NCBI GenBank assembly: GCA_051439505.1
Contig: JBFRWI010000162.1
Span: forward strand, 1-50,560
Length of the DNA: 50,560 nucleotides
From: Hormoscilla sp.
Lineage (GTDB): Bacteria > Cyanobacteriota > Cyanobacteriia > Cyanobacteriales > Desertifilaceae
Direction of reading: 5' to 3'
Part shown: positions 14,643-50,437 of the stretch, in pieces
How positions within the stretch are numbered: position 1 is the stretch's first letter
Layout of the letters: each line of letters starts with the position of its first letter
The notes under the pieces: generated by a model
Seen by the model: the letters and a program-made list of their open reading frames with translations, nothing else
Told to the model about the DNA's origin: nothing
The model's database searches: none
Translations under genes and position numbers: made by a program

Positions 14643-14671
14643 AAATAAGATATGATATGATACGAGGAGCT

Positions 14672-14756
14672 GGAGAGGTGGCAGAGTGGTCGATCGCGCT
14701 CGACTTGAAATCGAGTGAACCGCAAGGTTCCGTGGGTTCAAATCCCACCCTCTCCG
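14672..14756 (+). tRNA. trnS: tRNA-Ser(TGA)
   Basis: Acceptor GGAGAGG/CCTCTCC, D-loop GAGTGGT, anticodon arm CTCGA-CTTGAAA-TCGAG, long variable arm GAACCGCAAGGTTC, T-loop GGTTCAAATCC. Confidence 0.97.
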
Positions 14757-14762
14757 TTGGTT

Positions 14763-15112
14763 TCAGCCTCGTGGCCCCCGCTTTTTTGAGTATTTTGAGT
14801 ATTTTGAGTATTCGGGGGCTGGTACCCTCATTGTCGATCGCCTTGGCGACCATATTGCGGGACTGACCTGGGATGTAAGTTGCCCGCAAGCACTGGCTGG
14901 TTGCGATCGCCCACTCATCCATTCTCGGATCCAGCGGTTGACCATGATTCGGAACTGTGGGGAGAGCCATTGAGCTAAATCTATGGCCACTTCTGGGTGG
15001 ACCCAAGTCCCCTGAGAGCCGTTGCATCTCCTCCACGCTTGCATAGTTTCGTCGCATTTACATAGCCGTCTTCCTGACGTTGGGGCACGGCCAGCCCATT
15101 AACTTCATGCAT
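14763..15112 (-). pseudogene. KilA-N domain gene remnant (internal deletion plus frameshift)
   Basis: One frame reads MHEVNGLAVPQRQEDGYVNATKLCKRGG; a shifted frame continues QGTWVHPEVAIDLAQWLSPQF; the usual intervening KilA-N segment is missing. Confidence 0.8.
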
Positions 15113-23455: not shown

Positions 23456-23806
23456 TTACTCACTGTCACAAAATTCGCGACTCAACCACAAAATCCGCTG
23501 GCCTGCCCAGCACAAAAACTCGTGCAAGTCTACTATGTCAAAATCTTGTTCATCAAACTCTTCTATGAGATGACTATCAAGTGTCAGAGCTCCTTTAGGT
23601 GGGTAGGGCCGATCCCATGGGTCTGTATAGCTGACCGCTGACCCAATACCTCCATAAGCAGCGGGTATCCTAAGATACGAGCAAACCCCTTCCGTCCAAA
23701 CCAGCAGTTTTTTGATGCTGAGGGATTCCCAATAATCTCGGGAACAGAATTCAAACAAATGCCCGTCTGGCATCAGCGGTTCTTTATCTAATGTGATCCT
23801 TGGCAT
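23456..23806 (-). CDS. Hypothetical protein, paralogue of 23810-24199
   Basis: Shared LDK.P..P...LFEFC..DYW.SL and EFL.W....LWL.R. Confidence 0.7.
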   Translation of the reverse strand: MPRITLDKEPLMPDGHLFEFCSRDYWESLSIKKLLVWTEGVCSYLRIPAAYGGIGSAVSYTDPWDRPYPPKGALTLDSHLIEEFDEQDFDIVDLHEFLCWAGQRILWLSREFCDSE

Positions 23807-23809
23807 TAC

Positions 23810-24199
23810 TTACTTCTCCCAAATGATGCTACGAAATAGCCACAAGAGCTGACGACTCCCCCAGTTAAGGAACTCAAAGAAATGTTCAATCTCAAAGTTT
23901 TTGCCATGAAAATATTCCCAAACATGCCCTGAACCACTGAGATCAATTTGTAGCTCATCAAGAATGACCCCAAATCTGGCAGAAAGCCCTTCAACTTCTT
24001 CTTCTTCGAGGTCAAGAACGATTGTGGCCCTGATCACTTCATCAATGTACGAGCTGAGCGCATGGATCCATCGGGCCAACTGTACGCTGTCGAGAGATCG
24101 CCAGTAATCCTGGGGGCAAAATTCAAACAACCCCTTGGCTGGTATCTGCGGCGCCTTGTCTAATATGACTCCTGACATTACTGATATCCTCCTGCCCAT
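23810..24199 (-). CDS. Hypothetical protein, paralogue of 23456-23806
   Basis: Same shared motifs. Confidence 0.7.
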   Translation of the reverse strand: MGRRISVMSGVILDKAPQIPAKGLFEFCPQDYWRSLDSVQLARWIHALSSYIDEVIRATIVLDLEEEEVEGLSARFGVILDELQIDLSGSGHVWEYFHGKNFEIEHFFEFLNWGSRQLLWLFRSIIWEK

Positions 24200-24381
24200 C
24201 GCTTCCTTGCCCTTGCCGGACCCCAGTATAGGTTGGCTCCCTTCGTCCGGGCCCTTTCGAGTCGCCTCATGTACTCGCCCACAATCTTTGCCACCGTTTC
24301 TTGGTCAAGGTAGACCTTATCTCCCACGTAAGCACTCATCGTTACCTTGAACTCTGCCTTTTCTGTCATGTCCCTTACCAA
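24178..24381 (-). CDS. Small hypothetical protein
   Basis: First gene after the structured spacer downstream of the repressor. Confidence 0.5.
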   Translation of the reverse strand: MVRDMTEKAEFKVTMSAYVGDKVYLDQETVAKIVGEYMRRLERARTKGANLYWGPARARKRWAGGYQ

Positions 24382-24547
24382 TTTTGTTTGCTTATGAGGG
24401 GGTACTCAGGTACTCCCTCTCTTTCTCATCTGCATGTAGACACCGGTAGTTAGGCTACCTGCTCTAACCAGGGCCTGTTTTGTTTACTGCTCGGGTGGGG
24501 GTATCCTAATACCCCCACTTCTTCGATCCTGCACGCTGTCACCGGTG

Positions 24548-25033
24548 CTATATCTTCTCCTGCTCGCCCTCTGGTGATTCCGATTTTTTAGATTGCGGAT
24601 AGTCATCCGGGATGCCAGTGGTATCAATGCCAAAGGCTCCGCATAGTGCCTTGAGTGAAACATTAAGCTTCCTCGCGGCAGAGATAACTGTTGCAACAGG
24701 AGTCATCTCCAAACTGTGAATCTCCTCTACAGACCTGTGTTCATTTGATGGCCCTGGCCGCTGACCGGTAGGCTCTCTCCTTAAAACGTCGTCAATCTCC
24801 ACTCCCATAATCTGAAAAAAGACATCAAGAGATATTTCACACATCCGGCAAGCACTGACGATTTGCTCAAGGGTGAACTTTGGCAATGTCTTTCCAGACA
24901 GCCATCTACGATAAGTAGACATTGAGATCCCGAGATTAACGACGAATTCCTCTCGTGACATGTCAGTATGATCGACCCTCAACATTTCCAACGGGGCATC
25001 ACCTTCTCTTGTGTGGTTTTCTTCTTTCTCCAT
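24548..25033 (-). CDS. XRE-family HTH repressor-like regulator
   Basis: MSREEFVVNLGISMSTYRRWLSGK HTH; second partial HTH (AARKLNVSLKAL); sits at the divergence point of the two arms. Confidence 0.8.
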   Translation of the reverse strand: MEKEENHTREGDAPLEMLRVDHTDMSREEFVVNLGISMSTYRRWLSGKTLPKFTLEQIVSACRMCEISLDVFFQIMGVEIDDVLRREPTGQRPGPSNEHRSVEEIHSLEMTPVATVISAARKLNVSLKALCGAFGIDTTGIPDDYPQSKKSESPEGEQEKI

Positions 25034-25083
25034 TATATACTGTAACTGTCATTCTGGCTAGTCAAAAAGATTTTTAATTGGGG

Positions 25084-25112
25084 TTGACATTTTCTCTATG
25101 ACCATCCATAAT
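25084..25112 (+). promoter_or_regulatory. Sigma70-type promoter for the rightward arm
   Basis: TTGACA (25084-25089), 17 nt, CATAAT (25107-25112); a structured hairpin begins 8 nt downstream. Confidence 0.75.
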
Positions 25113-25119
25113 GAATATA

Positions 25120-25436
25120 GGTAGACAACACACCCCTAGAGACTGGCACGGCAGATACCCGACGACCAGTTCATAAGGGGATTGTCTACCGAAAGCCCTA
25201 AGTTGTCAGCCCACAAGGGGTTGAGAGTCCAAAGAGTCAAGTTCGTTACTTGTCGGGCCCACCTAAAGGCGGACAGCTAGGAAAAACCTTAAATTGTTAC
25301 CCTGTAAGGGTCTGAGCGCCCAGAGACTCAAGCACACCACTTGTTGGGCCCACCAGAACAGCTAGCGATTAAGGACTCTAAAACAACAGGCAAGCACCGG
25401 CAGGTCAAAGGATAAGCGCCTTCACTTGCACCGGTG
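25120..25436 (+). ncRNA. Putative structured RNA / long 5' leader with a tandem-duplicated motif
   Basis: Nested stems GGTAGACAA/TTGTCTACC, CCCCT/AGGGG, ACTGG/CCAGT; two similar ~80-nt units at 25199-25280 and 25290-25365; further CACCGG/CCGGTG stem; no ORF. Confidence 0.55.
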
Positions 25437-25530
25437 GAAGGATTAAAGCTGATGTAGTTATTGCGATCGGCTAAAGCAGGCATGGACTCTGTCCAGCCAA
25501 AAACGTGACTTAAATATCTCAGGAGTAAAA

Positions 25531-25797
25531 ATGAGCGAGTCTTTGAACGTGACCATAGAGTTGCCTTGCGATTACGACAAGGAAATGCCCCCAGTTACTG
25601 TGACGATCGTGCCCCCCGGGGAAAAGCCAGGCTATCCAAAGCCAACACCCATATATGAGATAGGCGAAGCCGTGGACCCCGAAGGCGGGATAACAACCAC
25701 GGACAAACCGGTGGAACCGGTTAAGCCCCCAGCAGAACCCATCAAGCCCCTGGCAGAGCCTGCCAAGGCATCCGGTTCTAAAGTCGAAGCTAAGTAG
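25531..25797 (+). CDS. Pro-rich small hypothetical protein
   Basis: AGGAG RBS; first gene of the rightward arm. Confidence 0.7.
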   Translation: MSESLNVTIELPCDYDKEMPPVTVTIVPPGEKPGYPKPTPIYEIGEAVDPEGGITTTDKPVEPVKPPAEPIKPLAEPAKASGSKVEAK

Positions 25798-25980
25798 GAA
25801 AAGACAAGGGGGCGACCTGGCGCGCAGGGGGAAGAAAGCTAGAACAACACTAGCGAAACGAGGGCTGAGTAGGCACCACAACCTACCGTTATCCCACTAA
25901 CGATCTATGCGAGTTGGGCGGTTTTAACCGGGCGTAAATGACAATCCCTCTCCCAAAATTCAACACACAATCGAGGCTAT

Positions 25981-26409
25981 ATGCAATTACAGCGGCGAAA
26001 TGCGAAAACTGACCTAATCCATGTCAGAGAAGAAAACGATTCAGACACTCTGATCATGCGCGGGCATGGCCCTTGGATGCCCGGTCGGAATTTCAACCCA
26101 AACGTCGGAACGTACTATGACGCCAACTTGTTTGTTATGCACGTAGAAGAGAATGGGCAACACAAATTCATGGCGCGGCTCGATCAGGATGGCAACGCTC
26201 CGATGGGCAGCGGTGGAACGAGTCCCTCAGTTTGGGGAGTTCTTTCAATTTGGAATGATCAAGGGCAGTTAGTTTTCCAACAAGGCTTACTAAATGACAG
26301 CCCCACTGGCTTTGTTCCTCCCGGAGCCTATGTTTTTCATGCAACCTACGAGATCCCTGGGCAACCGAATACACGGCGCTTTGCGGAATTTGAGGCCGCT
26401 TTAATCTAG
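25981..26409 (+). CDS. Hypothetical protein
   Basis: GAGG RBS; co-oriented. Confidence 0.65.
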   Translation: MQLQRRNAKTDLIHVREENDSDTLIMRGHGPWMPGRNFNPNVGTYYDANLFVMHVEENGQHKFMARLDQDGNAPMGSGGTSPSVWGVLSIWNDQGQLVFQQGLLNDSPTGFVPPGAYVFHATYEIPGQPNTRRFAEFEAALI

Positions 26410-26495
26410 CTCGATTGATTTAGCATCAACTAATTAGCCAGGCTGCGGGGTGAACCAAAAAGGGACGCTGGCATAACAAAACCCGCCCATGATTT

Positions 26496-26852
26496 ATGTT
26501 TAAGGTTGTCATCAAACTTTTTGAACCAGCCGTACATCTTGACCGAGTACGAAAAGAGCAACTAGCAGACCCTTTCAATCATCCGGATCGCTATCGTCTT
26601 TCACTCGGACTTATGGAAGTCCTGGATGGAGTCCCCTATTGTAAAGAGTCACGAAAAAAAGATTTTTATGCATTTCCTGACAATTTTTGCCCACGATACC
26701 TGGGAGAATATCCAGCGATAATCCTTGGGCTAAACGGATCAGAACTTTTCGGTGAGGATCGATTCTTACAATACGATCGGACTCCCGTAATCTTGCCATC
26801 TGTTTTTAACCTTCCACTCCCGCTAATAAAGAAGTTAAGAGAGCGAGACTGA
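26496..26852 (+). CDS. Hypothetical protein
   Basis: Co-oriented ORF. Confidence 0.6.
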   Translation: MFKVVIKLFEPAVHLDRVRKEQLADPFNHPDRYRLSLGLMEVLDGVPYCKESRKKDFYAFPDNFCPRYLGEYPAIILGLNGSELFGEDRFLQYDRTPVILPSVFNLPLPLIKKLRERD

Positions 26853-26859
26853 AAATATC

Positions 26860-27147
26860 ATGAAAGAAAACAATCGTTATTTTGTTTGTAGTCCCCCAGG
26901 AATGCCCAATCAATTCCTGACCGTGACAGCGGACCAAGCTAAACGAATAGAGAGAGATCCTCTATATCTAAACTCTAAAACTCCTGTCAGCGATTGGGCT
27001 TTTGATAGATTGTCCGAAATATTTGAAAAGGATGGACAAATGTTTTATGACTTCCAGGAGCTGTCTCAAGAGGAAGGAGACAAGCTCCAAATAATGAGGG
27101 ACGTTTTAAATGGTCTAATCAAACCGAAAGATCCAAATGCAAAATAA
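26860..27147 (+). CDS. Hypothetical protein
   Basis: Co-oriented ORF. Confidence 0.6.
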   Translation: MKENNRYFVCSPPGMPNQFLTVTADQAKRIERDPLYLNSKTPVSDWAFDRLSEIFEKDGQMFYDFQELSQEEGDKLQIMRDVLNGLIKPKDPNAK

Positions 27148-27247
27148 TAACTATCGAGGAGAACTCGCTGATACAATAGTAATTGTCAGTTCCTTAATAA
27201 TCTTCGCCATCCCACTATTTCTAGTAATATCCAGCATGTTACATTGA
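27137..27247 (+). CDS. 36-aa single-pass membrane peptide, not in the ORF track
   Basis: MQNNNYRGELADTIVIVSSLIIFAIPLFLVISSMLH; start overlaps the end of the previous gene. Confidence 0.5.
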   Translation: MQNNNYRGELADTIVIVSSLIIFAIPLFLVISSMLH

Positions 27248-27276
27248 ACAGGTGATATGAGCGATTCAAGAGGGGA

Positions 27277-30200
27277 ATGCAGCAGCGGCTATCAAAGAAT
27301 AGCGAAAATCAAATGTATACAGGAATAACTCTATTCTCTGGCCTTGGATTGGCCGACATTGGCTTAAAAAAAGCAGGCGTTAACGTAGTTGGTGCTGTAG
27401 AGATCTCCCCGGCTATAGCTGAATGGTATCAACGCAATAACCCCAACTGCCAGATGATGATCGGGTCAGTAGAAGAGTTTGATTACCGCCTATTCTCCGG
27501 GGTAGATCTACTCCACATGTCCCCACCATGCCAGCAATACAGTATTGCTAGGAGCAAAAAAGATCTCCCCCGCCATAAAGGCGCAGATGCTGGACTTCTG
27601 ACATTCAAGGCGATCGAGCAAATCCGCCCCAAGTTCATTACCTTAGAGAACGTTAGAGGCTATGCTCTGGCTAAACCTTATTCAGAACTCAAACAGTTCT
27701 TGTGGGACTTGGGATACTGGATAAATGAAGAGATCGTAAACTGTGCGGATTATGGAATTCCCCAGTCAAGGATTCGACTTATTACTCAGTGGATACGGAA
27801 TGATGCTGTAACCGATCATGCCGTCATCCAATACCAGACCCTGTTTGGGGAAAAATTTTGGGGCGGGCACCCTCTGCAAAAACAAGAGCACAAAGGCTGG
27901 TACTCGGCGATCGAAGATCTCATTCCCTCACTACCAGAAACTAAGTTAGCTCCTTGGCAAAAGAAAAGACTGCCTACAGAATTTCATGGAGATCTTCTTG
28001 TTGGTGACCAACACGAACGCCCCCGTACAACAGAACAACCAGCCTTTACCGTCTGCATTAAAGGCCCCCCGCGAGCGTTCTTGATCCGCAGGAATGGACA
28101 GAAATCACACTCAAAATTTGTTGAGATTATTTGCGAATCAAGACCATCCCCCACAATCCTGGCATCACAGAATATTAGTGGCAGACAATTTGATGGGTGG
28201 GACGGCCAGAAGGTTGTAGAGATTACTCCCCAATGCCTAGGAAGATTTCAGACACTCCCCGATTCTTTCCAGCTCCCAGAGAAGAAATCCCTGGCATCTA
28301 TTGGCATCGGGAATGGTGTCCCCTGCGAGATGATGCGTCAAATCGCCTCAAGATTAATCAGTCCCGTCAACTCAACAGATATGACCCCACCGATTATTAC
28401 AAAGGGCAAGCCAAAATGGACTACTGATGATTGGCGGACTCCAGATGAGGAGCGTCAACCAGTCGTAACCCTGGTAAAGCAAGCATTGGGTGGCGTGATC
28501 GGACTTGATCCTACAGCAGATTACAGCAAGCTTATCCCGGCTCAACGACATAGCACTAAGGCCGAAGACTGCCTACCATTAGATTGGGAATCACCGGCTG
28601 GAACCGTTTTCCTAAATCCTCCTTACTCCAACCCCTTGCCTTTCATCAAGAAGCTGATCGAGCAAATGGACCAGGGACTGGTAAAAGAGGCGATCGTGCT
28701 CCTGCCCCTTCGCTGCATTGGCAATCAAGGGACCGGTAAGATTATCAAAGCACGGGCAAAAGCCCACTGCGTGTGGAACTGGAATGGTCGGCTAGCATTT
28801 CTAGCGGAGGATGGCATCCCGAGAAAAGGACCTGATTTTATCTCCTGCTTAATTTATTTTGGAGACATGGAGGCTCGATTTATCGAGACATTCCATGACT
28901 ATGGGGTTGTCTCCCGCTTTGACAAAGGCAATCGAAACATGAGTACCAACGGGGCAGTGATCACCGGTACAGAAGAGATAAAAAGCCCATTAACACAAAG
29001 TGAACTCAATAAAAAAGGTCTCTGTGATTATGTTATTAACGTGGCCTCCGGTTGCCTGCACGGCTGTACCTTCTGCTACGTACCGTCAACTCCAGTTATC
29101 CGCTTTAGGCAAGGCTATCTCCAGAACAAGGGAGTAGAGAACCCCCAGCAAGACTGGGGGAAATATCTGTTTACCAGAGATGCGATCGCTCAACAGTTGG
29201 ATAAGGCTCTAGCCAATAAGCGCACTTGGCTAGAGACCCCAGCAGGAAAAGGCGTAGTCATGCTATGCTCAGGTACAGACCCTTACCAAAACCAACGGAC
29301 TGCGGCAATCACTCGGGCTTGTGTGGAAGTGTTGCTAAAGCATGGCAAACGGGTTAGAATCCTCACTCGTAGCCCGTTATGGACTCAAGATTTAGATATC
29401 CTGGTAAGCCCTCTCGTAACGGTGGGGATGAGCTTGCCCCATTTGGACGATCGCCTTAGCCGCCAGATTGAACCAAAGGCCCCACTACCCAGTGATCGCT
29501 ACCGGGCATTAGAAAAAGGGGCCGCAACAGGATGCCGGTTGTTTGTGGCCATGGCACCCACTCCTCCCCAGATGGGAACAACAGAGTTCCTAGAGCATTT
29601 ATCCAAACTGAAAAAACTCAACCCAGAGGTGATATTCTGGGAGCCGATCAATGCCAGAGGGACTAACGGCTCACGAATGTTAGATGCTGGCTTAGATTTT
29701 GCACAAGATATTTCCAGCACCCAATCCTGGGCGGACATTTTTGTGAGACAATGGCGAGAGCTTAACGTTGCTGCTTCATTAGCTGACTGCCAAGAGCTAC
29801 TTCACATCTGGCCCGATCGCGCTCTGAAAGGATATATTCCCGACAATGAAATAGAATCATGGTGGTCACGGCCCACTAAGGAAGCATGGCCATCCGCTAT
29901 AAACCAACCTCAATCAACCACTACTACTATGTTTAGAGAAGAAGATCACTACGATTTAAGTGAAAATATCGAAGCCTTCAACCGGCACATCCCACTCCTG
30001 GAGCCCCTAACTCCCCCGATCGCCTATTTACCACAAGCTCCTGATACCTTGATCACGTCATCAATTGACGAAAGGATCGCCGCCCTCACCGAAGAGATCG
30101 AGAGCCTAGAGGAACAAGCGCGTATCCGCCGGGAGGAGATTGTTCATCTGCAAGAACAGGCCAAAATTCAACTAAGATCGGAGTTTGAGGAAAAACTAAA

Positions 30201-30813
30201 GGAGCTGCAAGAATTGTTTAAGCGGGCTTCCCAATACGGCCGAACAGAGGATTTCTGTTGTGAGTTGAAACGCTTTCACGATCAAGTATGCCCAGGTTCT
30301 TGCAAAGGAACTGAGGATACAGATGAGGCGATCGCCCCCGTGTTACCCCAACAAGACCCAACCGTAGATCTCAACATTCCCGAAGTCGAAATCTCGCCAT
30401 TGCCCCCCTCTGACCCTGAAAGAAAACCACTGTCATCTCTGGACTATCCAGAACAAGACAGTGACTCTTATAGTGAGAGGGAAAAAAGTATAGAAGCTTC
30501 CTTTGATTCTAACCTTAAAAAAGAAGAACTGCAACTTTCACACGGGGAAGACACCGTGTTAAAGTTCCAAAGCGCGGCCCAGGCTGAGATTTGGAAAGGA
30601 TGGTTTACTACCCTGGTAGGTCAACAGCTCGGGGAAGAAGTTATTGTTACCCGTCACAAGCGATCAAGGAATCTGTACATCAAAAACTTGACGGTCAATG
30701 AGCTAAAAATTATTGACTATTTAGAACTGCCAGAAAATCTCCCCACTCCTTTAGCAGCTCATGAAATGTGGGAACTCGCAAAAATAGAATCCGGAATTAC
30801 AGAGGATAAATAA
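27277..30813 (+). CDS. Fusion of C5-cytosine DNA MTase, phage Dam-like N6-adenine MTase, radical SAM domain and coiled-coil C-terminus (likely start 27313)
   Basis: FSGLG, SPPCQ, ENV, PQSRIR, IGNGVP (C5 MTase); DDWRTP, LDP, FLNPPYS (N6 MTase); GCLHGCTFCY, TDPYQ, ILTRSP (SplB/Rv2578c-like radical SAM). Confidence 0.88.
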   Translation: MQQRLSKNSENQMYTGITLFSGLGLADIGLKKAGVNVVGAVEISPAIAEWYQRNNPNCQMMIGSVEEFDYRLFSGVDLLHMSPPCQQYSIARSKKDLPRHKGADAGLLTFKAIEQIRPKFITLENVRGYALAKPYSELKQFLWDLGYWINEEIVNCADYGIPQSRIRLITQWIRNDAVTDHAVIQYQTLFGEKFWGGHPLQKQEHKGWYSAIEDLIPSLPETKLAPWQKKRLPTEFHGDLLVGDQHERPRTTEQPAFTVCIKGPPRAFLIRRNGQKSHSKFVEIICESRPSPTILASQNISGRQFDGWDGQKVVEITPQCLGRFQTLPDSFQLPEKKSLASIGIGNGVPCEMMRQIASRLISPVNSTDMTPPIITKGKPKWTTDDWRTPDEERQPVVTLVKQALGGVIGLDPTADYSKLIPAQRHSTKAEDCLPLDWESPAGTVFLNPPYSNPLPFIKKLIEQMDQGLVKEAIVLLPLRCIGNQGTGKIIKARAKAHCVWNWNGRLAFLAEDGIPRKGPDFISCLIYFGDMEARFIETFHDYGVVSRFDKGNRNMSTNGAVITGTEEIKSPLTQSELNKKGLCDYVINVASGCLHGCTFCYVPSTPVIRFRQGYLQNKGVENPQQDWGKYLFTRDAIAQQLDKALANKRTWLETPAGKGVVMLCSGTDPYQNQRTAAITRACVEVLLKHGKRVRILTRSPLWTQDLDILVSPLVTVGMSLPHLDDRLSRQIEPKAPLPSDRYRALEKGAATGCRLFVAMAPTPPQMGTTEFLEHLSKLKKLNPEVIFWEPINARGTNGSRMLDAGLDFAQDISSTQSWADIFVRQWRELNVAASLADCQELLHIWPDRALKGYIPDNEIESWWSRPTKEAWPSAINQPQSTTTTMFREEDHYDLSENIEAFNRHIPLLEPLTPPIAYLPQAPDTLITSSIDERIAALTEEIESLEEQARIRREEIVHLQEQAKIQLRSEFEEKLKELQELFKRASQYGRTEDFCCELKRFHDQVCPGSCKGTEDTDEAIAPVLPQQDPTVDLNIPEVEISPLPPSDPERKPLSSLDYPEQDSDSYSEREKSIEASFDSNLKKEELQLSHGEDTVLKFQSAAQAEIWKGWFTTLVGQQLGEEVIVTRHKRSRNLYIKNLTVNELKIIDYLELPENLPTPLAAHEMWELAKIESGITEDK

Positions 30814-36216: not shown

Positions 36217-36294
36217 GGAGTTCATGTGAACGTTGTTTTATTTCCGTATAAAGACGGTTGACGGTAAGCCCTGTAGGGGACGAACATTATGTTA

Positions 36295-36349
36295 GACTTG
36301 AAGAGGTTCCCGCCGGACGCTGAGCCTTCATAAGGAACCTCTTCAAGTC
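36295..36349. other. Perfect 16-bp inverted repeat with 23-nt loop between the replicase and the structural module
   Basis: GACTTGAAGAGGTTCC ... GGAACCTCTTCAAGTC. Confidence 0.9.
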
Positions 36350-38346: not shown

Positions 38347-39972
38347 ATGACCGAGAAAACTATTATTCATTCCCTGATTGGGGGGGGCTCTGTCCCCAAG
38401 ACTATTATCCCATTATATCGAACAAGTTATGGGGCGAAAGTTTTGAGCCTTAAAGCCGATGTCTGGATTCCAGGTTATTCAATTGTCCCACTCCCCTTTT
38501 TAGATGAAGACAATACTCCAGAGCAAGATACGTTAATTTTAGTTAAAGACGAATTTGACAATGCTCAAATTTTCTTGCATCTTTTTTTAAGAGATCTGTC
38601 CACATGGCATTTTGTCCGTACATTTCCGCTTGTTAACAGAGGGACATTGATGATCCCAGATCTTTTAGCCTCGTATACTAATCACTGGGGATATTTTGCT
38701 TTACAAAAAGGTTATGTGCTCGGGGTTTGTTTTGAATTTATAGAGAAAGAACTGGATACATATGAATATATTACTGTTCGTGGTCATATAGAGGAGTCTA
38801 TACTTCCAGGGACGGAGGAGGTGATAGATGAGTCCCCTGTAGAAGTTCCCGAGCTGCCTCCAATACCTACTAGAACGCCGCAACCGACGCCAGACCCATC
38901 TCCAACACCAGACCCGTCACCGGCGCCAGACCCATCTCCAACACCAGACCCATCGCCAACGCCAGACCCGTCACCAACGCCAGACCCATCTCCAACGCCA
39001 GACCCGTCACCGGCACCAGACCCATCGCCAACACCAGACCCGTCACCGGCGCCAGACCCATCGCCGACGCCAGACCCATCGCCAACACCAGACCCATCGC
39101 CAACACCAGACCCGTCACCGGCGCCAGACCCATCACCGACGCCAGACTTGATTGTTGTTGGGGTCAGTAATCCTACTTCAGTTGTTCCAGGGGGCACTCT
39201 TATTTATCAATTTACGGTCGCCAATGTTGGTAGTGCGATACAAGGTGAGATCTCAGTTTCGAGTACCCTACCTTCTAGTTTCGAGTATGAAAATGTGACT
39301 TTTAGTAGGGGAGGTTTTTCTACAGATGGGGTTAGTGATAATGTTCTCCAGTTTTATGGGGGGAGACTTGAACCATTAGAATCTGCTGATTTTACTGTAT
39401 CTGGTACTGTTGCACAAAGTACATCTGTTGGGCAGATTGAAAACATAGTTGCGATCGGGGATGGGGATACTGTAATTACAATTCCCACAACAATTATGGA
39501 GTCTAGCCCAGGAAATCCAGAACCAGTAGAGCCGACTCCGACACCACAGCCAGTTCCAGATCCAGAGCCAGAGCCAGAATTACCTCCTATCGAATCAGAG
39601 TTAGAGTTGACACTTTCTACTACATCATCTGCGGTCCAGGTTGGGGGGACTGTATCGTATAGATTCCGTCTTGAGAATCTTTCTTCGAGGACAATAATGG
39701 GCATAAGCGTTGACAATGATTTTGTTGGCACGGGGGTGACGGTTGTTGGTGCAAGTGTAGATCCACCAGAAAGAGACTTTAGGGTTGTTAGTGCTAGAGG
39801 GTATGATTTCTTGGGGACGTTACTCCCTAGGCAAGTAGTCCGTTTGGATGTTGTGTTGATATTGCCTAATTCCTACACGGGGACATTACAATCTACGACA
39901 ACGCTCCGAACCGATGACGGTCGTTCTAAAGAGTATGTGTATGAGAAGGGATTTTCTATAAGTCCTAGTTAA
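38347..39972 (+). CDS. Putative structural/spike protein: shared N-domain, (P[T/A]PDPS)14 stalk and two DUF11/Ig-like domains
   Basis: MTEKTII start shared with the next gene; [15 protein letters not shown] and [18 protein letters not shown]11-like motifs. Confidence 0.7.
38884..39147 (+). repeat. 18-bp coding tandem repeat, 14 units plus a partial unit
   Basis: Encodes P(T/A)PDPS. Confidence 0.95.
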
Positions 39973-39974
39973 AA

Positions 39975-41531
39975 ATGACTGAAAAAACAATAATCAAAAC
40001 GATCACATTTGCCAACTATGCATCAGAGATAGTTCCAGTATATTTAGCTAGACAGCATTCAAAAGTCTTAAGCTTGAAGGTTCAATCTCGTCTGCCTAGC
40101 TATAGATTACATCAGTATCCGTTCAGCCTTTCCTTTGATGATACAGACGAATTGAATAGAGCAAGGATTACTACATATAATTGTGAGCATACCCAGGTTT
40201 TAATTAATTTATTTTTGATGGATTATAAGCGTTGGAATCTTATACGCTCAGAGCCTGTTGTTAATTATGGTGGGGTTATTGAAACTTTAGTTATCGAGCC
40301 ATACATTAGTGATTTTTGCTATTTTGTTTTACAACGTGGATTTGCTATCGGCATTCACATTCAATGCTTAGAGCACCCTTTAATGCCTGGGGATGTAATT
40401 ACCATTATTGGGCATGCAGAGACAGCAGAAGAATCCGCCCCTGTAGCGGATCTCATTCCTAGCCCTGAAAATATTTATTTTGCTGCACCTTCTTTGCCAT
40501 TGCCCAAGCCCCGGGGTGGATTTATTTTAGATGCTTATCCAGATGCGATCGCGGGTTTTAGCTTGAGGAAGTTAACGGAACATTACAATGGTCCTGCTCT
40601 TCGTGCTCGTCGTGCGGATGGGGTAGACGCTGATATTGGATTTGATGGCGATCGATTGGATGTAGCGCAGTTATTCGACTTTGCATCAGGTAGTAGTGTT
40701 CATGGACATGTTGAGGTTTTGGTTTGGTACGATCAAACTGGGAGATACGGTCATTTGTATGCTCCCGATCTCTCTCTTGATGAAAAAAGGCCCTTGATCA
40801 TGTCATACTCTAATAGAAGGGGATATAAAATATATAGCGATGCTTTAGGGTATAAAATAAAGAATGGAGAGCAGGTCCGTGATGATAGATATCGAGATCT
40901 TCCTTACATGGAGTTTCAGAGGGGGTCGTTTTTACGGGGAGCCGAGGGTGTTAGGATTCTCGGAGATGCATCTCGGAGATTGGTTGTAGTCGCTGGTCGG
41001 TTTGGTTTTGGGGAGCCTTATTTATGCGGTTTTGGAGGGACGGAAAGTCCTCAGTTTTACGGATTGTCCTTTTTTCGTCGATCGGGAAGACCTAGCCGCA
41101 CAATGAAAGTGTTTTTGACTAATGGGAGGGATGGGAATTCTTTGTCTTTACGATATGGTAGCACGAATATAATTTGCGCTACGTATTATCAGAAAAGCAA
41201 GATCAATCATTTGTCTCTTAATGGAGGGGCAGACGTGGGGGGGGATGTTGATATGTCATCCGAGTTTCTTCTTGAGACTATTGACGGGCCTCTCGCTGTC
41301 GGGGCAACTTCTTTCCCCGTTCCAATAGAACAACAGCGGCAAGGGGATTTTGCTTGTTATGAATTACTGCTGTGGGGTCAAATAAATCCTACTGACAATT
41401 GGACCCCTGGCAGGGACACTCATTGGGACTTAGCTATTGATATGGATATATTTTATCCGACATTTGAGCCTTTTAGTAGACGATATGTGAGACCTGGGGG
41501 TAGAGTTTACGATGTTCAAAACATTAATTAA
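39975..41531 (+). CDS. Putative structural/spike protein: shared N-domain plus LamG/ConA-like head
   Basis: AGFSLRKL...YNGPALRARR.DG..ADIGF and V.VWYDQTG motifs typical of phage lectin-like domains. Confidence 0.7.
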   Translation: MTEKTIIKTITFANYASEIVPVYLARQHSKVLSLKVQSRLPSYRLHQYPFSLSFDDTDELNRARITTYNCEHTQVLINLFLMDYKRWNLIRSEPVVNYGGVIETLVIEPYISDFCYFVLQRGFAIGIHIQCLEHPLMPGDVITIIGHAETAEESAPVADLIPSPENIYFAAPSLPLPKPRGGFILDAYPDAIAGFSLRKLTEHYNGPALRARRADGVDADIGFDGDRLDVAQLFDFASGSSVHGHVEVLVWYDQTGRYGHLYAPDLSLDEKRPLIMSYSNRRGYKIYSDALGYKIKNGEQVRDDRYRDLPYMEFQRGSFLRGAEGVRILGDASRRLVVVAGRFGFGEPYLCGFGGTESPQFYGLSFFRRSGRPSRTMKVFLTNGRDGNSLSLRYGSTNIICATYYQKSKINHLSLNGGADVGGDVDMSSEFLLETIDGPLAVGATSFPVPIEQQRQGDFACYELLLWGQINPTDNWTPGRDTHWDLAIDMDIFYPTFEPFSRRYVRPGGRVYDVQNIN

Positions 41532-42195
41532 ATCTTGGAGCAGCGTTAATAAATCTTGGGGGAAAATGGCCACTATAAGTGAAGCTTTTGATAATAGTTA
41601 TCATTACCGAAACTCAATAGGAGTTAAGCTGTATCCAGGGATAGTAGATATTCTCCATCAGGCAAACCATAGTGGAATTATTATTTGTCTTAAGGCTTGG
41701 ATGAGTCTGTATGAGCAGCATGTTGACGGGCGTCTTGGGTATACAGCTAAACCGTTGGGGATACCAGATGGCTCTAGCTTTGAGGATGATCGCGTAGTGA
41801 ATTTGCAAAATGTTGCTAGTGACCGACGGATGCGGTTTTATCTTGAATTTCTTAAGGCTACAAGGATTTTTGATGAGCCGACGAGTCCTTTTGCCCCGCC
41901 TCGTAAACCATCTTTGCTTGGTATTGATTGGCTCTCTGAAGATACAGCAGTTTTGTTGGATTGGGCTGATTGGCATTTGCTGAGCCGATTCTCTATTCCC
42001 GTGAGAAATGTCCCTATTGAGATTGATTTGTTGAGCGAAGTGAAAAGCCGAGATGATTTAGGATATCTTCCCTTCGTCAAGGGAGATATCTTTGGAGTGC
42101 GGCTTTTGGTAGATTCATTTCAGGACAATCACCACTTATCCTTTGGAGATGCTATAAGTATAGTAGGCAGTATTGTAGATGAGGAGTTAGAATAA
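41512..42195 (+). CDS. Putative structural protein: stand-alone copy of the shared N-domain
   Basis: WHLLSRF, GYLPFVKGDIFGV, GDAISIVG align with segments of the two upstream N-domains. Confidence 0.6.
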   Translation: MFKTLIKSWSSVNKSWGKMATISEAFDNSYHYRNSIGVKLYPGIVDILHQANHSGIIICLKAWMSLYEQHVDGRLGYTAKPLGIPDGSSFEDDRVVNLQNVASDRRMRFYLEFLKATRIFDEPTSPFAPPRKPSLLGIDWLSEDTAVLLDWADWHLLSRFSIPVRNVPIEIDLLSEVKSRDDLGYLPFVKGDIFGVRLLVDSFQDNHHLSFGDAISIVGSIVDEELE

Positions 42196-44024
42196 TGTCA
42201 TTGGCGGGTCTTTCTCTTGCTACGCCTGGTGTTCCGGGGGCTTTTGGCTATGGTGGGGGCTGGGCTTTGGGGAGTGGGTATGCTCCTTTGTCTGCATTGA
42301 GTGGAGTGGGGGCTTGGCTTGGTCATGCGGTGGGACCTATAGTCTCTGCTGGGGGTTCTGCTTTATATGCTGCTGGTACTGCTTTAGCCTATGGAACTGT
42401 TACTGTGGGTGGAGCGATCCTGATTGTACTACTCACTCCTAGCGTTACTGGAGACTTGACGATCTCCAGTCCCATAGCTACGTCTAGCCCTTATGTTGGG
42501 CCTCCTCTGCCTACCACTATTACAGAGACTATTACGAGAACTTTAACTAGAACGACGTACTTTTCCAGTGCGACGCTTGTCTATCATAATTGGAATGGTC
42601 TGATAGGAACAGCCCAGGGTATGTACTTAGCTGCTGTTCCTGATGGGGATAGAATTATTTGGCCTTATTTAAGTACCGGGTGGGTTAGTCAACGGGGTTT
42701 AATAGGAGGAGGGACTCCTTTTGATATGGGGGGGTTTATGCAGAAGGGGGGGGAAGTTTGGTTAGGGGCTGGCTTGAATACCCGGGACTCTTTCCTCCTG
42801 TGGTTTGAAAAAAGTTTCCCTGCTTCTTGGACAGACTTGGGGCTTGTGTGGACTCCGGATATGATGAGCGCGAACGATCCGCGTCAAGAGCATCGGTGGA
42901 AGTGGGATGGTTATGGATGGTTGCATCAGCCAAATTTGGCGCGTTACGATCCGGATGGGGTTGAATGGTTTGACGGAGGCATTCATCCAGATTTTTTGGA
43001 TTATCTATATGTCCTCGGGAACTTTGCTCATTCCTTGGCTCAGAGAGGGGCATTCTTTAATGCGTCAGGGGAACTTCGGAAGACTTTTACCAATCTTTAC
43101 GGGGGATTGACTCTTGTGATCAAGAGTGAGCGTGGTTTTGATGTCTGGAATTCTAAGCAGTTGAGTGATTACGCCTGGAAATGGTCTAATGGGGCTACCG
43201 CAGACCCTCGTGATGCGGTGCCAATATTGGAGGGTCACAGACCTCTCGCAGAGGAGTTTGTCCTTTGGGAGTCACCGCCACATACTGAAAAAGAAAAGGT
43301 TTCTACGATAACTCTTACAAAGACAAAGACGAAAATGAAGTGTTGCCCGTTAGTTCTTAAAAAGTTAAAAAAAATAAAAAAGATCCTTGCGACTTATGTT
43401 GTCCATGATGTTAAAGGATATTTCCCTCCGATCTGTTTGGAACGGGGGACCAAAAACCGTTTCACCGGGGAGCCGATTGTAGACTGGAACAACCGCCATG
43501 CTGTAAATAGTCTGGTGAACAGGATCTCTAGTGGGACCGTCCCCATAACAGTAGGCCCTGGTGGAGTTAAGGAGATTTATGCTGGGAAGGGGCTTGCTGG
43601 AATTGCTAAGATGATCAAAGCCCAAAACTTTCAGCAAAGTCAGACGGCGCTTGCTACCGATCGGGCTAAGGCTTTATGGTGTGAGGTGGCTGAGCCTGAA
43701 CTTGAAACTAGGTTATTGGCTTCCGGTATAGAGGAAGATCAGTTGGTAAGCTTGACACCTACAACGATTTATGTTATATTGAATGTGGAGTATGATCCGA
43801 CCCAAATCAGAAACTTCTGGCCATCTATGACGTCAGCACTCCCTGATAAGTTGTGGGCAGGGCATGTTCTATTTAAAGACTCTGACGGAAATTATTCGCC
43901 TGAGTATCCTGTTATCAGCAAGAATACCCGGCTTTTTTTGCCATTTCCGTCCTCGGGGATCTTGATCAGACCTGCCCAGGGGGTAAGGTATCGGGTCTCT
44001 GTTCGGCAGGTTGTGCCGACTTGA
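42195..44024 (+). CDS. Hypothetical virion-like protein with Gly/Ala-rich hydrophobic N-terminus
   Basis: TM-like N-terminal segment, Thr-rich stretches, basic MKCC..KKLKKIKK helix; coupled start. Confidence 0.65.
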   Translation: MSLAGLSLATPGVPGAFGYGGGWALGSGYAPLSALSGVGAWLGHAVGPIVSAGGSALYAAGTALAYGTVTVGGAILIVLLTPSVTGDLTISSPIATSSPYVGPPLPTTITETITRTLTRTTYFSSATLVYHNWNGLIGTAQGMYLAAVPDGDRIIWPYLSTGWVSQRGLIGGGTPFDMGGFMQKGGEVWLGAGLNTRDSFLLWFEKSFPASWTDLGLVWTPDMMSANDPRQEHRWKWDGYGWLHQPNLARYDPDGVEWFDGGIHPDFLDYLYVLGNFAHSLAQRGAFFNASGELRKTFTNLYGGLTLVIKSERGFDVWNSKQLSDYAWKWSNGATADPRDAVPILEGHRPLAEEFVLWESPPHTEKEKVSTITLTKTKTKMKCCPLVLKKLKKIKKILATYVVHDVKGYFPPICLERGTKNRFTGEPIVDWNNRHAVNSLVNRISSGTVPITVGPGGVKEIYAGKGLAGIAKMIKAQNFQQSQTALATDRAKALWCEVAEPELETRLLASGIEEDQLVSLTPTTIYVILNVEYDPTQIRNFWPSMTSALPDKLWAGHVLFKDSDGNYSPEYPVISKNTRLFLPFPSSGILIRPAQGVRYRVSVRQVVPT

Positions 44025-44052: not shown

Positions 44053-44427
44053 ATGTCTTCAGGAGATTTCATTATTTCTAAGTGTGAGGACACCCAGGAT
44101 CCCACAATAGTATATAAGTGTCGGGTGCAGAAAGAGACTTTAGATGCGTCTATTGGCTCTGTAATGAATACAGAAGCTACTATGGACGTGAATCAGGCTG
44201 TTTCTGCCTGGATTGGAAAGAGTAATCGTCAGCTAGGGTTCCGTCCCGCCATTGCATATTTTAGATGGCAGGACGGACAAATCCCTGCTAACTATACTGG
44301 GCAAACTGGAAAAATCGTGCTTCTTACTCAAGCGGCATATAAGGCGGCTGTAAAAATGGGAGCAGAAATCACCTATCTGACTAAAATGGCGGATATAACA
44401 AGTGTGGATCCTTCTGATGCTAAATGA
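44053..44427 (+). CDS. Small beta-rich protein, candidate major structural protein
   Basis: Very strong RBS GAAGAGGAGGG; 124 aa. Confidence 0.6.
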   Translation: MSSGDFIISKCEDTQDPTIVYKCRVQKETLDASIGSVMNTEATMDVNQAVSAWIGKSNRQLGFRPAIAYFRWQDGQIPANYTGQTGKIVLLTQAAYKAAVKMGAEITYLTKMADITSVDPSDAK

Positions 44428-46614: not shown

Positions 46615-46740
46615 TCAGAGAAAAATAGGTACGTCTATATTTTGTTTTGCCCCAGCATAGTGTCTATAAATTGTTTCTGGACTGTTGCCTACCAGTTTCG
46701 CGACATCCTTAATGTCCATCCCGCCTTCTAGACATATTGA
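46615..46740 (-). pseudogene. C-terminal remnant of a tyrosine integrase
   Basis: Manual translation SICLEGGMDIKDVAKLVGNSPETIYRHYAGAKQNIDVPIFL*; matches box II (GNS...RHY); upstream RHT motif and the rest of the gene are absent. Confidence 0.8.
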
Positions 46741-46756
46741 GTTTAGGAGACTAATC

Positions 46757-47380
46757 ATGAATCAAGCACATCAAAAAAAATCGCTAAACTTTTTACGGTC
46801 GTAGACCGTAAAAAGTTTAGCGATTGCGGCGGTTTTAGCTGTTTTAATGCCAACTAACTCAGCTCAGGCTGCAACCATAACCATTGGTTTTGATGAATTC
46901 AGCAACTTTGAAACTATCTCAGGTGATACTTTTATAGATTTAGGTGTTGTTTTTGACAACTCCTTAAGGATTTTCGATGGCAGTACCGGGGCATTGCCTC
47001 AATCTCAACCAAACACGGCAGCAAGGGCCGTTCCCTTTGCAGGAGATATTAGCGGGTTTTTCACAGAGACAGTTGATTTTATTTCAGTCTTTGCAGGGGA
47101 TGGGGTCCGAGATATCGATACTGTAACTCTTCTAGGGTTCGATGAATTTGACAACATTGTTGCTTCTGACACTTTTTCAGCAGTCACAGCACAGACTTTA
47201 TCCATCTCTGGTCCTGGGATCGCTCGGTTTGAGATTAACAATGTTGGACGGATTGCCATAGATGACTTTACCTTCAATACTAAATCAGTTCCTGAACCAG
47301 TTTCAGTTGTTGGTTTATTAGCCCTTGGTGCCGTTGGTGCAGGTTCGATGTTAAAGCGCAAGATGTTAAAGCGCAAATAG
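46757..47380 (+). CDS. PEP-CTERM sorting-domain protein; signal-peptide region interrupted by in-frame TAG (46802-46804)
   Basis: AGGAGA RBS and ATG 46757 in frame with the 46847 ORF; KSLAIAAVLAVLMPTNSAQAA signal; VPEP, TM and KRK tail. Confidence 0.85.
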
Positions 47381-47387
47381 AATTACG

Positions 47388-47499
47388 GGCGTTGCACAAT
47401 AACGGGATGATGGGCATAGTTGCAAAAGTTTGAAACCTCGACTATAAGCCACGTTCAGTTATGTGCCAAAATGGCATCATCCCCAAAATGTGCAACGCC
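47388..47499. mobile_element. Second MITE of the GGCGTTGCACA family
   Basis: TIRs GGCGTTGCACAATAACGGGATGATG / CATCATCCCCAAAATGTGCAACGCC; 8-bp TSD GAATTACG at 47380-47387 and 47500-47507. Confidence 0.88.
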
Positions 47500-47633
47500 G
47501 AATTACGCTTTGTGGCATCAAATAAAAGATTCGTAACGGGCGCAGCTAGCGGTTGAGGGGCCGACGAAGATGTGTTGTTTCACGGAAGGAAGATTCGAGG
47601 TTTCAGCCTTTCCCCTCCAACTTCTGGATGCGC

Positions 47634-50311: not shown

Positions 50312-50437
50312 GGTTCGTAGTTGCGCTTTAGCCGCCCGAACCCTAAAGGGCCCGGCTACACGAACAAAGCCCGCCTGCGCGGGCTAGATTATAAAAGTGA
50401 TATGCACCCGCTTTAGCGCTTTAGCGCAACTACGAAC
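50312..50437. repeat. Composite palindromic repeat element
   Basis: GTTCGTAGTTGCGCT...AGCGCAACTACGAAC ends enclosing CCCTAAAGGG..GCTACACGAACAAAGCCCGCCTGCGCGGGCT, also seen at about 2566-2610. Confidence 0.8.

Follow-up and report, generated by a model that had tools for sequence, protein, structure and literature searches.

Does the long leader at the head of the rightward gene arm in a mobile island of Hormoscilla sp. contain a new cis-acting RNA and, if so, what might this RNA do? The question was raised by an initial annotation of the window (the whole stretch of 50,560 nucleotides analysed here), in which a near-consensus promoter was seen to be followed by about 410 nt free of ORFs, with two tandem copies of a motif, units A and B, resembling no known riboswitch or ribozyme. 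A put-like antiterminator, a tandem riboswitch or a ribozyme at the head of a co-oriented arm of about 21 kb was proposed. The layout of the region, the origin and distribution of the repeat, its predicted folding and the competing explanations for it were therefore analysed.

Results and discussion

Layout of the promoter and leader region

The features of the locus are compiled in Table 1. The promoter is indeed close to the consensus and is the best of 3 sites in 24200-27400, where the control consisted of shuffles that average 4.0 sites at a laxer 9-of-12 threshold. A transcript with a putative start near 25119 would have a leader of 412 nt up to the ATG at 25531, in good agreement with the annotated length; it contains no ORF of 80 aa or more, and stops are present in all three forward frames. 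Both units have the positions and the sequence that had been assigned to them, and the co-oriented arm was recovered at the expected size. A-rich linkers part H1, unit A, unit B and H3. H3 does not appear in the list of terminators on the forward strand. The bases of the Shine-Dalgarno (SD) sequence have predicted unpaired probabilities of 0.29, 0.97, 0.46, 0.80 and 0.83. One Logan contig spans 25114-25489 with zero differing letters; as it derives from one study, possibly the source sample, it supports the assembly only.

The divergent gene encodes a repressor-like protein, as judged from matches to Pfam HTH_3/HTH_31 (E = 2e-4, below the cut-off), a PHROG repressor (E = 2e-4) and an RstR-like protein (E = 1.4e-3). 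One relative of it was found, in Logan, with 66% identity.

Table 1. Positions of features of the leader, its surroundings and the mobile island in the window
Feature	Position	Strand	Remarks
XRE/HTH repressor-like gene	24548-25033	-	divergent from the leader; true start may be the ATG at 24985
Promoter-like TAGCCA-17-TATAAT facing the repressor gene	25032-25060	-	10/12 consensus matches; putative function
Sigma-70-type promoter TTGACA-17-CATAAT	25084-25112	+	11/12 consensus matches
H1, long irregular hairpin at the putative 5′ end	25120-25190	+	-30.1 kcal/mol, z = -5.9, 0/200 shuffles as stable
Unit A	25195-25282 (core 25199-25280)	+	from repeat alignment; folds alone, z = -2.0
Unit B	25286-25368 (core 25290-25365)	+	6 nt shorter than A near the 3′ end
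H3, hairpin past the units	25395-25436	+	z = -1.3; no U-tract behind
Two small hairpins	25447-25472, 25479-25498	+	z = -1.3, not significant
AGGAG ribosome-binding site and ATG (25531) of the first gene	25521-25533	+	start of an 88-aa proline-rich orphan
Mobile island	14900-46730, limits approximate		adjoins tRNA-Ser (14671-14757)
Rightward arm	25531-46584	+	21 kb, co-oriented

The mobile island

The host genome has a size of 6.47 Mb and is 93% complete. The leader lies in an island of about 32 kb with plasmid- and phage-like genes, which is poor in the motif that we take to be HIP1 (0.22 per kb versus 1.0 genome-wide). The genome-wide frequency fits a cyanobacterial host. Similarity to genomes of the same genus ends near 14810 and restarts at 46736. 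Neither an integrase gene, among the island ORFs compared with Pfam and PHROGs, nor an att repeat, despite the abutting tRNA-Ser, was found for the island. In the related locus L049, 28 bp from the 3′ end of a tRNA-Ser-like gene recur about 15 kb away from it. The gene content points to either a prophage or an integrated plasmid-like element, for which the ParM-like gene suggests an episomal stage.

According to Pfam, the genes of the left arm include those for the XRE-like repressor, UvrD, an ATPase and a ParM-like protein. The leftward operon begins with two paralogues (23456-24199) that share 30% identity and have no family match. Between this operon and the repressor gene two similar G/C-rich hairpins are located (24396-24419 and 24497-24516), which have pyrimidine runs behind them on the forward strand only, antisense to the left arm. 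The right arm comprises four small orphans, a methyltransferase/radical SAM fusion, a 1545-aa Rep/primase-like protein, further orphans, and collagen-LamG and DUF11 proteins that are tail-fibre-like. The fusion is a 1178-aa ORF (27277-30813) in which a radical SAM part is joined to two methyltransferases, a C5 cytosine and a Dam-like adenine one; at 27986-28132 contigs of two runs show a joint that skips 145 bp, its short side measuring 28 letters. The 1545-aa protein has a primase-like N-terminus and shares 22% identity over 78% of its length with a Planktothrix plasmid protein.

Further observations were made in the downstream part of this arm. Between the Rep-like and the first tail-fibre-like gene there is a perfect 16-bp inverted repeat with a 23-nt loop (36295-36349) and no U-tract after it, possibly a processing site, a pause or a DNA hairpin; a CCC-TGTA-GGG mini-hairpin just upstream, at 36268, resembles helix P2 of the units. 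Three adjacent genes at 38347-42195 appear to have a common orphan N-terminal domain of about 150 aa, as indicated by an E value of about 1e-18 between the genes at 38347 and 39975 and, for the gene at 41566, by alignment only (19-27%). Two of the three carry extra C-terminal parts, namely DUF11 and a phage-structural-protein-like domain, and the gene layout may be likened to that of virion spike proteins.

The element appears to be rare, and many of its genes are orphans or near-orphans. Those homologues of its proteins that have names are cyanobacterial. The ATPase has 95 matches at E ≤ 0.001, itself included. For the 124-aa orphan (44053-44427) two close metagenomic relatives (79% and 67%) were found, and none in 300 and 400 other genomes or in a viral contig. 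Together with the relative of the repressor, they are known as Logan and ENA proteins. An Atlas search with it gave no match scoring 0.9 or above; its best matches reached 0.87, and two of three lie in viral clusters, which is taken as a lead only. Two AlphaFold models, both with pLDDT 34, were too low in quality to use.

One of the closest comparisons is with the integrated cyanobacterial Rep and ATPase elements at loci L049-L055, where a Rep-like arm likewise diverges from an arm ending in an ATPase of 30-41% identity, and a ParM-like gene is also present in L050, L051 and L055. Unlike the island, these loci have no match to the RNA model of the units, and their fetched stretches are without repressor or tail-fibre-like gene matches.

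Units A and B are a tandem duplication

Unit B follows unit A at a spacing of 91, which is not a multiple of 3. An ungapped stretch of 72 nt shows 72% identity between the two, and 57 of 80 aligned columns are identical. The score of the self-alignment (44) compares with a maximum of 24 in 300 dinucleotide shuffles. The differences amount to 23 substitutions and one indel. Of these substitutions, 17 are transitions, a type of change that often keeps pairs through G-U wobble. The duplication is real; the leader that contains it is long and in part well folded, and belongs to a rare mobile element.

A profile search of the genome yielded A and B and no further copy, and an unfiltered search of the whole window with the RNA model returned the same two, the next best match having E = 1.1; the leftward arm is without a copy. 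A dispersed repeat of the REP or MITE kind was rejected since the genome has two copies only. Likewise, a CRISPR repeat was rejected, as the scripted list of tandem arrays, judged by eye, included no CRISPR-like array. The short BLAST matches were discarded because they belong to a different dispersed repeat.

Searches for relatives

In Rfam, the region 24900-26000 gave two weak matches at E ≤ 10, both outside the leader, so that the earlier failure to recognise a riboswitch or ribozyme was upheld. At the gathering threshold, the window had only a tRNA and a match at 50363. The latter, to CRISPR-DR28 (50363-50386), falls in one of two dispersed repeats (47378-47506 and 50328-50410) with many copies in same-genus genomes, and probably is not a CRISPR repeat.

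Similarity to the leader DNA was found in none of 60 relatives. When 24500-26500 was compared with 400 other genomes of the class, the leader had no match, and two genomes had matches of about 35 bp inside the 142-aa gene. Plasmids and phages gave no match, and three 24-nt matches at E = 7 are put down to chance. The RNA model, which rests on two sequences (A and B) and was run on overlapping genome samples (101, 151, 151 and 5 genomes), matched none of 100 relatives, one of 151 genomes of the order, none of 150 other genomes of the phylum and none of 5 genomes with ATPase relatives. The one match (33 bits) was rejected, as it spans the ends of two host-type ORFs, presumably GUN4-like and IctB-like, with little sequence identity. 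The fetched loci gave no match. The ATPase relatives led to 8 genome loci, 25 metagenome loci and 0 viral loci; these 33 are without a unit, most of the 25 being too short for the matching region.

Six scans of viral data with patterns gave 9, 0, 2, 1, 26 and 3 stretches, none of which extends to a unit. Neither the model in cyanobacterial genomes nor the patterns in viral data, as used for the proposed search, returned a homologue. Among the 26 pattern matches, 14 IMG/VR loci have a common leader of their own, in which one segment can pair with an upstream site and with a site at the next start codon; of the 13 loci that include the upstream site, 12 have matching changes. This leader has a layout like that of C4/CI antisense RNAs and is unrelated to units A and B; no Rfam match was seen in those of its loci that were compared, six of ten at the gathering threshold and four at E ≤ 1, where unrelated weak matches alone were seen.

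In the mechanism literature, at the level of titles and the beginnings of abstracts, no paper on the element was seen. Taken together, no homologue is found in any collection searched, the repeat is known from one locus, and the units could be assigned to none of the families tested. They are an uncatalogued candidate and not an established RNA family.

Predicted folding and tests for selected structure

The whole leader folds with z = -3.1; most of this signal is due to H1 (z = -5.9), the units having z = -1.9. In the segment 25193-25395, the forward strand has z = -1.9 and the reverse strand -0.6. Unit A alone forms a closed domain; unit B alone is not above shuffles (z = +0.4), yet its helices P3 and P4 have pair probabilities of 0.9 or more.

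A and B have in common nine potential helices of at least 4 bp, and the four pairings named earlier (TTGT/ACAG, CCC/GGG, CAAG/CTTG and GYCC/GGGC) can form in each of them. In the nested model P1 pairs alignment columns 9-13 with 78-82, P2 16-18 with 23-25, P3 33-36 with 61-64 and P4 44-47 with 55-58. A pseudoknotted model keeps P1 and P3 and pairs columns 19-23 with 55-59 and 28-30 with 43-45. The two predicted folds fit equally well, in line with the suggestion that a pseudoknot could form instead. One compensatory pair distinguishes A from B, C13-G78 becoming U13-A78, a change that hinges on the placement of the 6-nt gap by hand.

Folding of successive prefixes predicts that H1 forms first and that A then stays closed as a separate domain until the synthesis of B. 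In the minimum-energy fold of the full-length leader A pairs with B and the downstream linker, across the GGGCCC palindrome; at -87 kcal/mol it is 21 kcal/mol lower than the modular model (-66 kcal/mol). No duplex between modules clearly beats shuffles (p ≥ 0.05).

The differences between the copies had been said to fall mostly in loops. This holds only for the structure derived from the two copies themselves, where 7 of 44 paired and 16 of 36 unpaired columns differ by hand count, and is circular; tests free of this circularity were not significant. With these substitutions placed at random as the null, alifold consensus energy (p = 0.29 and 0.35), the SCI (p = 0.27 and 0.44), the pairs predicted from one copy and kept in the other (15/20, p = 0.31; 13/18, p = 0.65) and the counts of conserved helices (p = 0.32-0.68) gave no departure. 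RNAalifold on a MAFFT alignment gave 17 pairs, 0 of them with a two-sided change. Since these four random-substitution tests have p = 0.27-0.68, selection for structure is undemonstrated, and with two copies and little power they neither show nor exclude function. As for the claim of a new cis-acting RNA, the lack of an Rfam family and the position behind a promoter divergent from a repressor gene in a mobile island agree with it; covariation could not be shown because there is no homologue and the two copies do not beat the random-substitution null.

Candidate functions of the leader

None of the three mechanisms proposed at the outset gained direct evidence. Our working model, the likeliest of the readings though itself doubtful, is that the leader could be a cis-acting structured RNA of a repressor-controlled rightward operon, that is, a processivity element of the put type. 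When the repressor is lifted, transcription would proceed from near 25119, and H1 would fold first and shield the 5′ end. Each unit would fold on emergence into a compact P1-closed domain, either as a nested three-way junction (P2 CCC/GGG, P3 GYCC/GGGC, P4 CAAG/CUUG) or as a pseudoknotted domain (columns 19-23 with 55-59 and 33-36 with 61-64). Without a helper protein, this domain would bind the elongating RNA polymerase and take it past pauses and hairpins, for example the 16-bp hairpin that separates the Rep-like gene from the structural ones, and a second copy would improve the odds of one folding in time.

It is from position alone that this working model was drawn: the leader follows immediately after a strong promoter that points away from a repressor gene. 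Points that agree with it are the closed domain of A in prefix folding, the helices possible in A as well as B with their one compensatory pair, and the better folding of the forward strand. According to PMC9378689, the put sites of phage HK022, with a size of about 70 nt, are located downstream of early promoters and exert their effect over at least 10 kb; each early promoter is followed by one copy, the fold is V-shaped with two stems, and the host has Rho. Here, as with putL/putR, a structured RNA of comparable size follows an early promoter in a temperate element and heads a long operon, with two related copies per element and no recognised antiterminator protein: families of such proteins had 0 matches among the island ORFs scanned (44 window ORFs with Pfam, 36 with PHROGs and 25 with NCBIfam), most of which are orphans. 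A cis-acting RNA near the head of a long operon is also seen in EAR of the Bacillus subtilis eps operon, which was proposed to allow read-through (PMC7858274). Unlike put, the two copies here stand side by side on the rightward arm, preceded by a distinct 5′ hairpin, and the leftward arm has no copy. Their predicted folds are P1-closed or cross-paired. Moreover, no Rho was found near the cut-off in the genome (best 22.5 bits versus 509), and the 3 terminator-like sites on the forward strand in 21.6 kb compare with 2.2 expected, the first of them at 42242, about 17 kb downstream. Given no Rho match and so distant a first site, there is little to antiterminate, which counts against the put-like proposal, as do the lack of a homologue, and hence of covariation, the two-copy tests that are not significant, the stability of unit B alone, which does not exceed that of shuffles, and the lower energy of the cross-paired full-length fold.

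Somewhat less probable is cleavage of the leader in the A-rich linkers to separate RNAs of about 90 nt, which would bind a protein of the element as an antitoxin, decoy or assembly RNA. The linkers would provide for this, the ParM-like gene hints at an episomal stage, and the order of promoter, about two pseudoknot-capable tandem repeats, palindrome and small genes is like that of the type III toxin-antitoxin systems toxI, cptI and tenpI (PMC3401426). Their RNA repeats, however, measure 31-62 nt in Table 2 of that source and the present one 91 nt. In addition, H3 has no U-tract and no terminator is present, no gene of the ToxN, CptN or TenpN family was found, the four downstream ORFs match no Pfam, PADLOC or NCBIfam family, and the 142-aa protein has 0 relatives among 1.84 billion representatives.

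Equally unlikely is an old tandem duplication drifting without specific function, in which only H1 and the length of the leader would matter. The substitutions are not clustered (runs p = 0.18) and are no better than random at keeping structure, the folding signal resides mainly in H1, and the divergent regions of six related Rep-ATPase loci have no comparable repeat of about 90 nt (repeat scores of 20-23 in five loci, and 38 in L055 for a 37-nt AT-rich repeat). Against drift it may be argued that the repeat survived 23 substitutions and an indel in a compact element, suggesting retention, and that the two-copy tests have little power.

Self-cleavage, with each unit being a ribozyme of an undescribed class that processes the leader, is a clearly improbable explanation. 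The units resemble small ribozymes in their size of about 85 nt, in a P1 that would close them and in the double pseudoknot that they may form; no Rfam ribozyme model matched at E ≤ 10, though, and the short cores that we take to mark the hammerhead, twister, pistol, hairpin and HDV-type classes are absent from the leader.

A tandem riboswitch coupling induction of the element to a host metabolite is still less credible. Its attractions are aptamer-sized tandem units in a 5′ leader and a possible switch: in each copy the UUGUY segments at columns 9-13 and 56-60 both match RACAG at 78-82, and columns 13, 60 and 78 change together from C, C and G to U, U and A, so that the two segments can compete for one partner, an observation that is post hoc and dependent on gap placement. 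Opposed to it are the lack of an expression platform, as the leader has no terminator and the SD sequence, about 155 nt after B, is predicted to be mostly open, marginal pairing of the units with the start region (p = 0.05 and 0.09 for the best two of nine pairings) and no match to an Rfam aptamer.

That the repeats act as DNA, with the repressor, the Rep-like protein or a ParM partner using them as operator, replication origin or partition site, is just as hard to credit: TTGTY-N1-3-CCC occurs four times at spacings of 47/44/47 bp, H1 is a strong hairpin as single-stranded DNA on either strand (z = -4.2 and -4.6) and the element encodes Rep- and ParM-like proteins, but similarity between half-units lacks significance (best p = 0.14), the units show no folding as single-stranded DNA (z = 0 to -0.9) and lie 80-250 bp downstream of the promoter, and iterons normally are short and near-identical.

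Base pairing of C4-type antisense RNAs with two complementary sites leads to premature termination. The leader is like those of P4 CI, Gifsy-1 IsrK and other C4-type RNAs in being long, structured and equipped with repeated short elements before replication genes, which in their case are those of a prophage (PMC4825925). Unlike them, it has no duplex between modules clearly above shuffles, no terminator and no match to RF01695 in the genome (150 of 633 first-look candidates scored), and this assignment was rejected.

Significance

The boldest form of the proposal, which is rather unlikely, is that the unit would represent a compact functional RNA of a new class with a double pseudoknot, which would serve as an RNA-only regulator of cyanobacterial RNA polymerase or as a new self-cleaving ribozyme and occur in tandem in an undescribed plasmid-like lineage of cyanobacterial viruses. 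At about 85 nt the units are small enough for direct testing. RNA-only antiterminators are known from few systems (put and EAR), and new ribozyme or riboswitch classes are rare. If the proposal is true for a host with no detectable Rho, such RNAs would either need nothing but pausing to act on, or there would be a new fold for catalysis or sensing.
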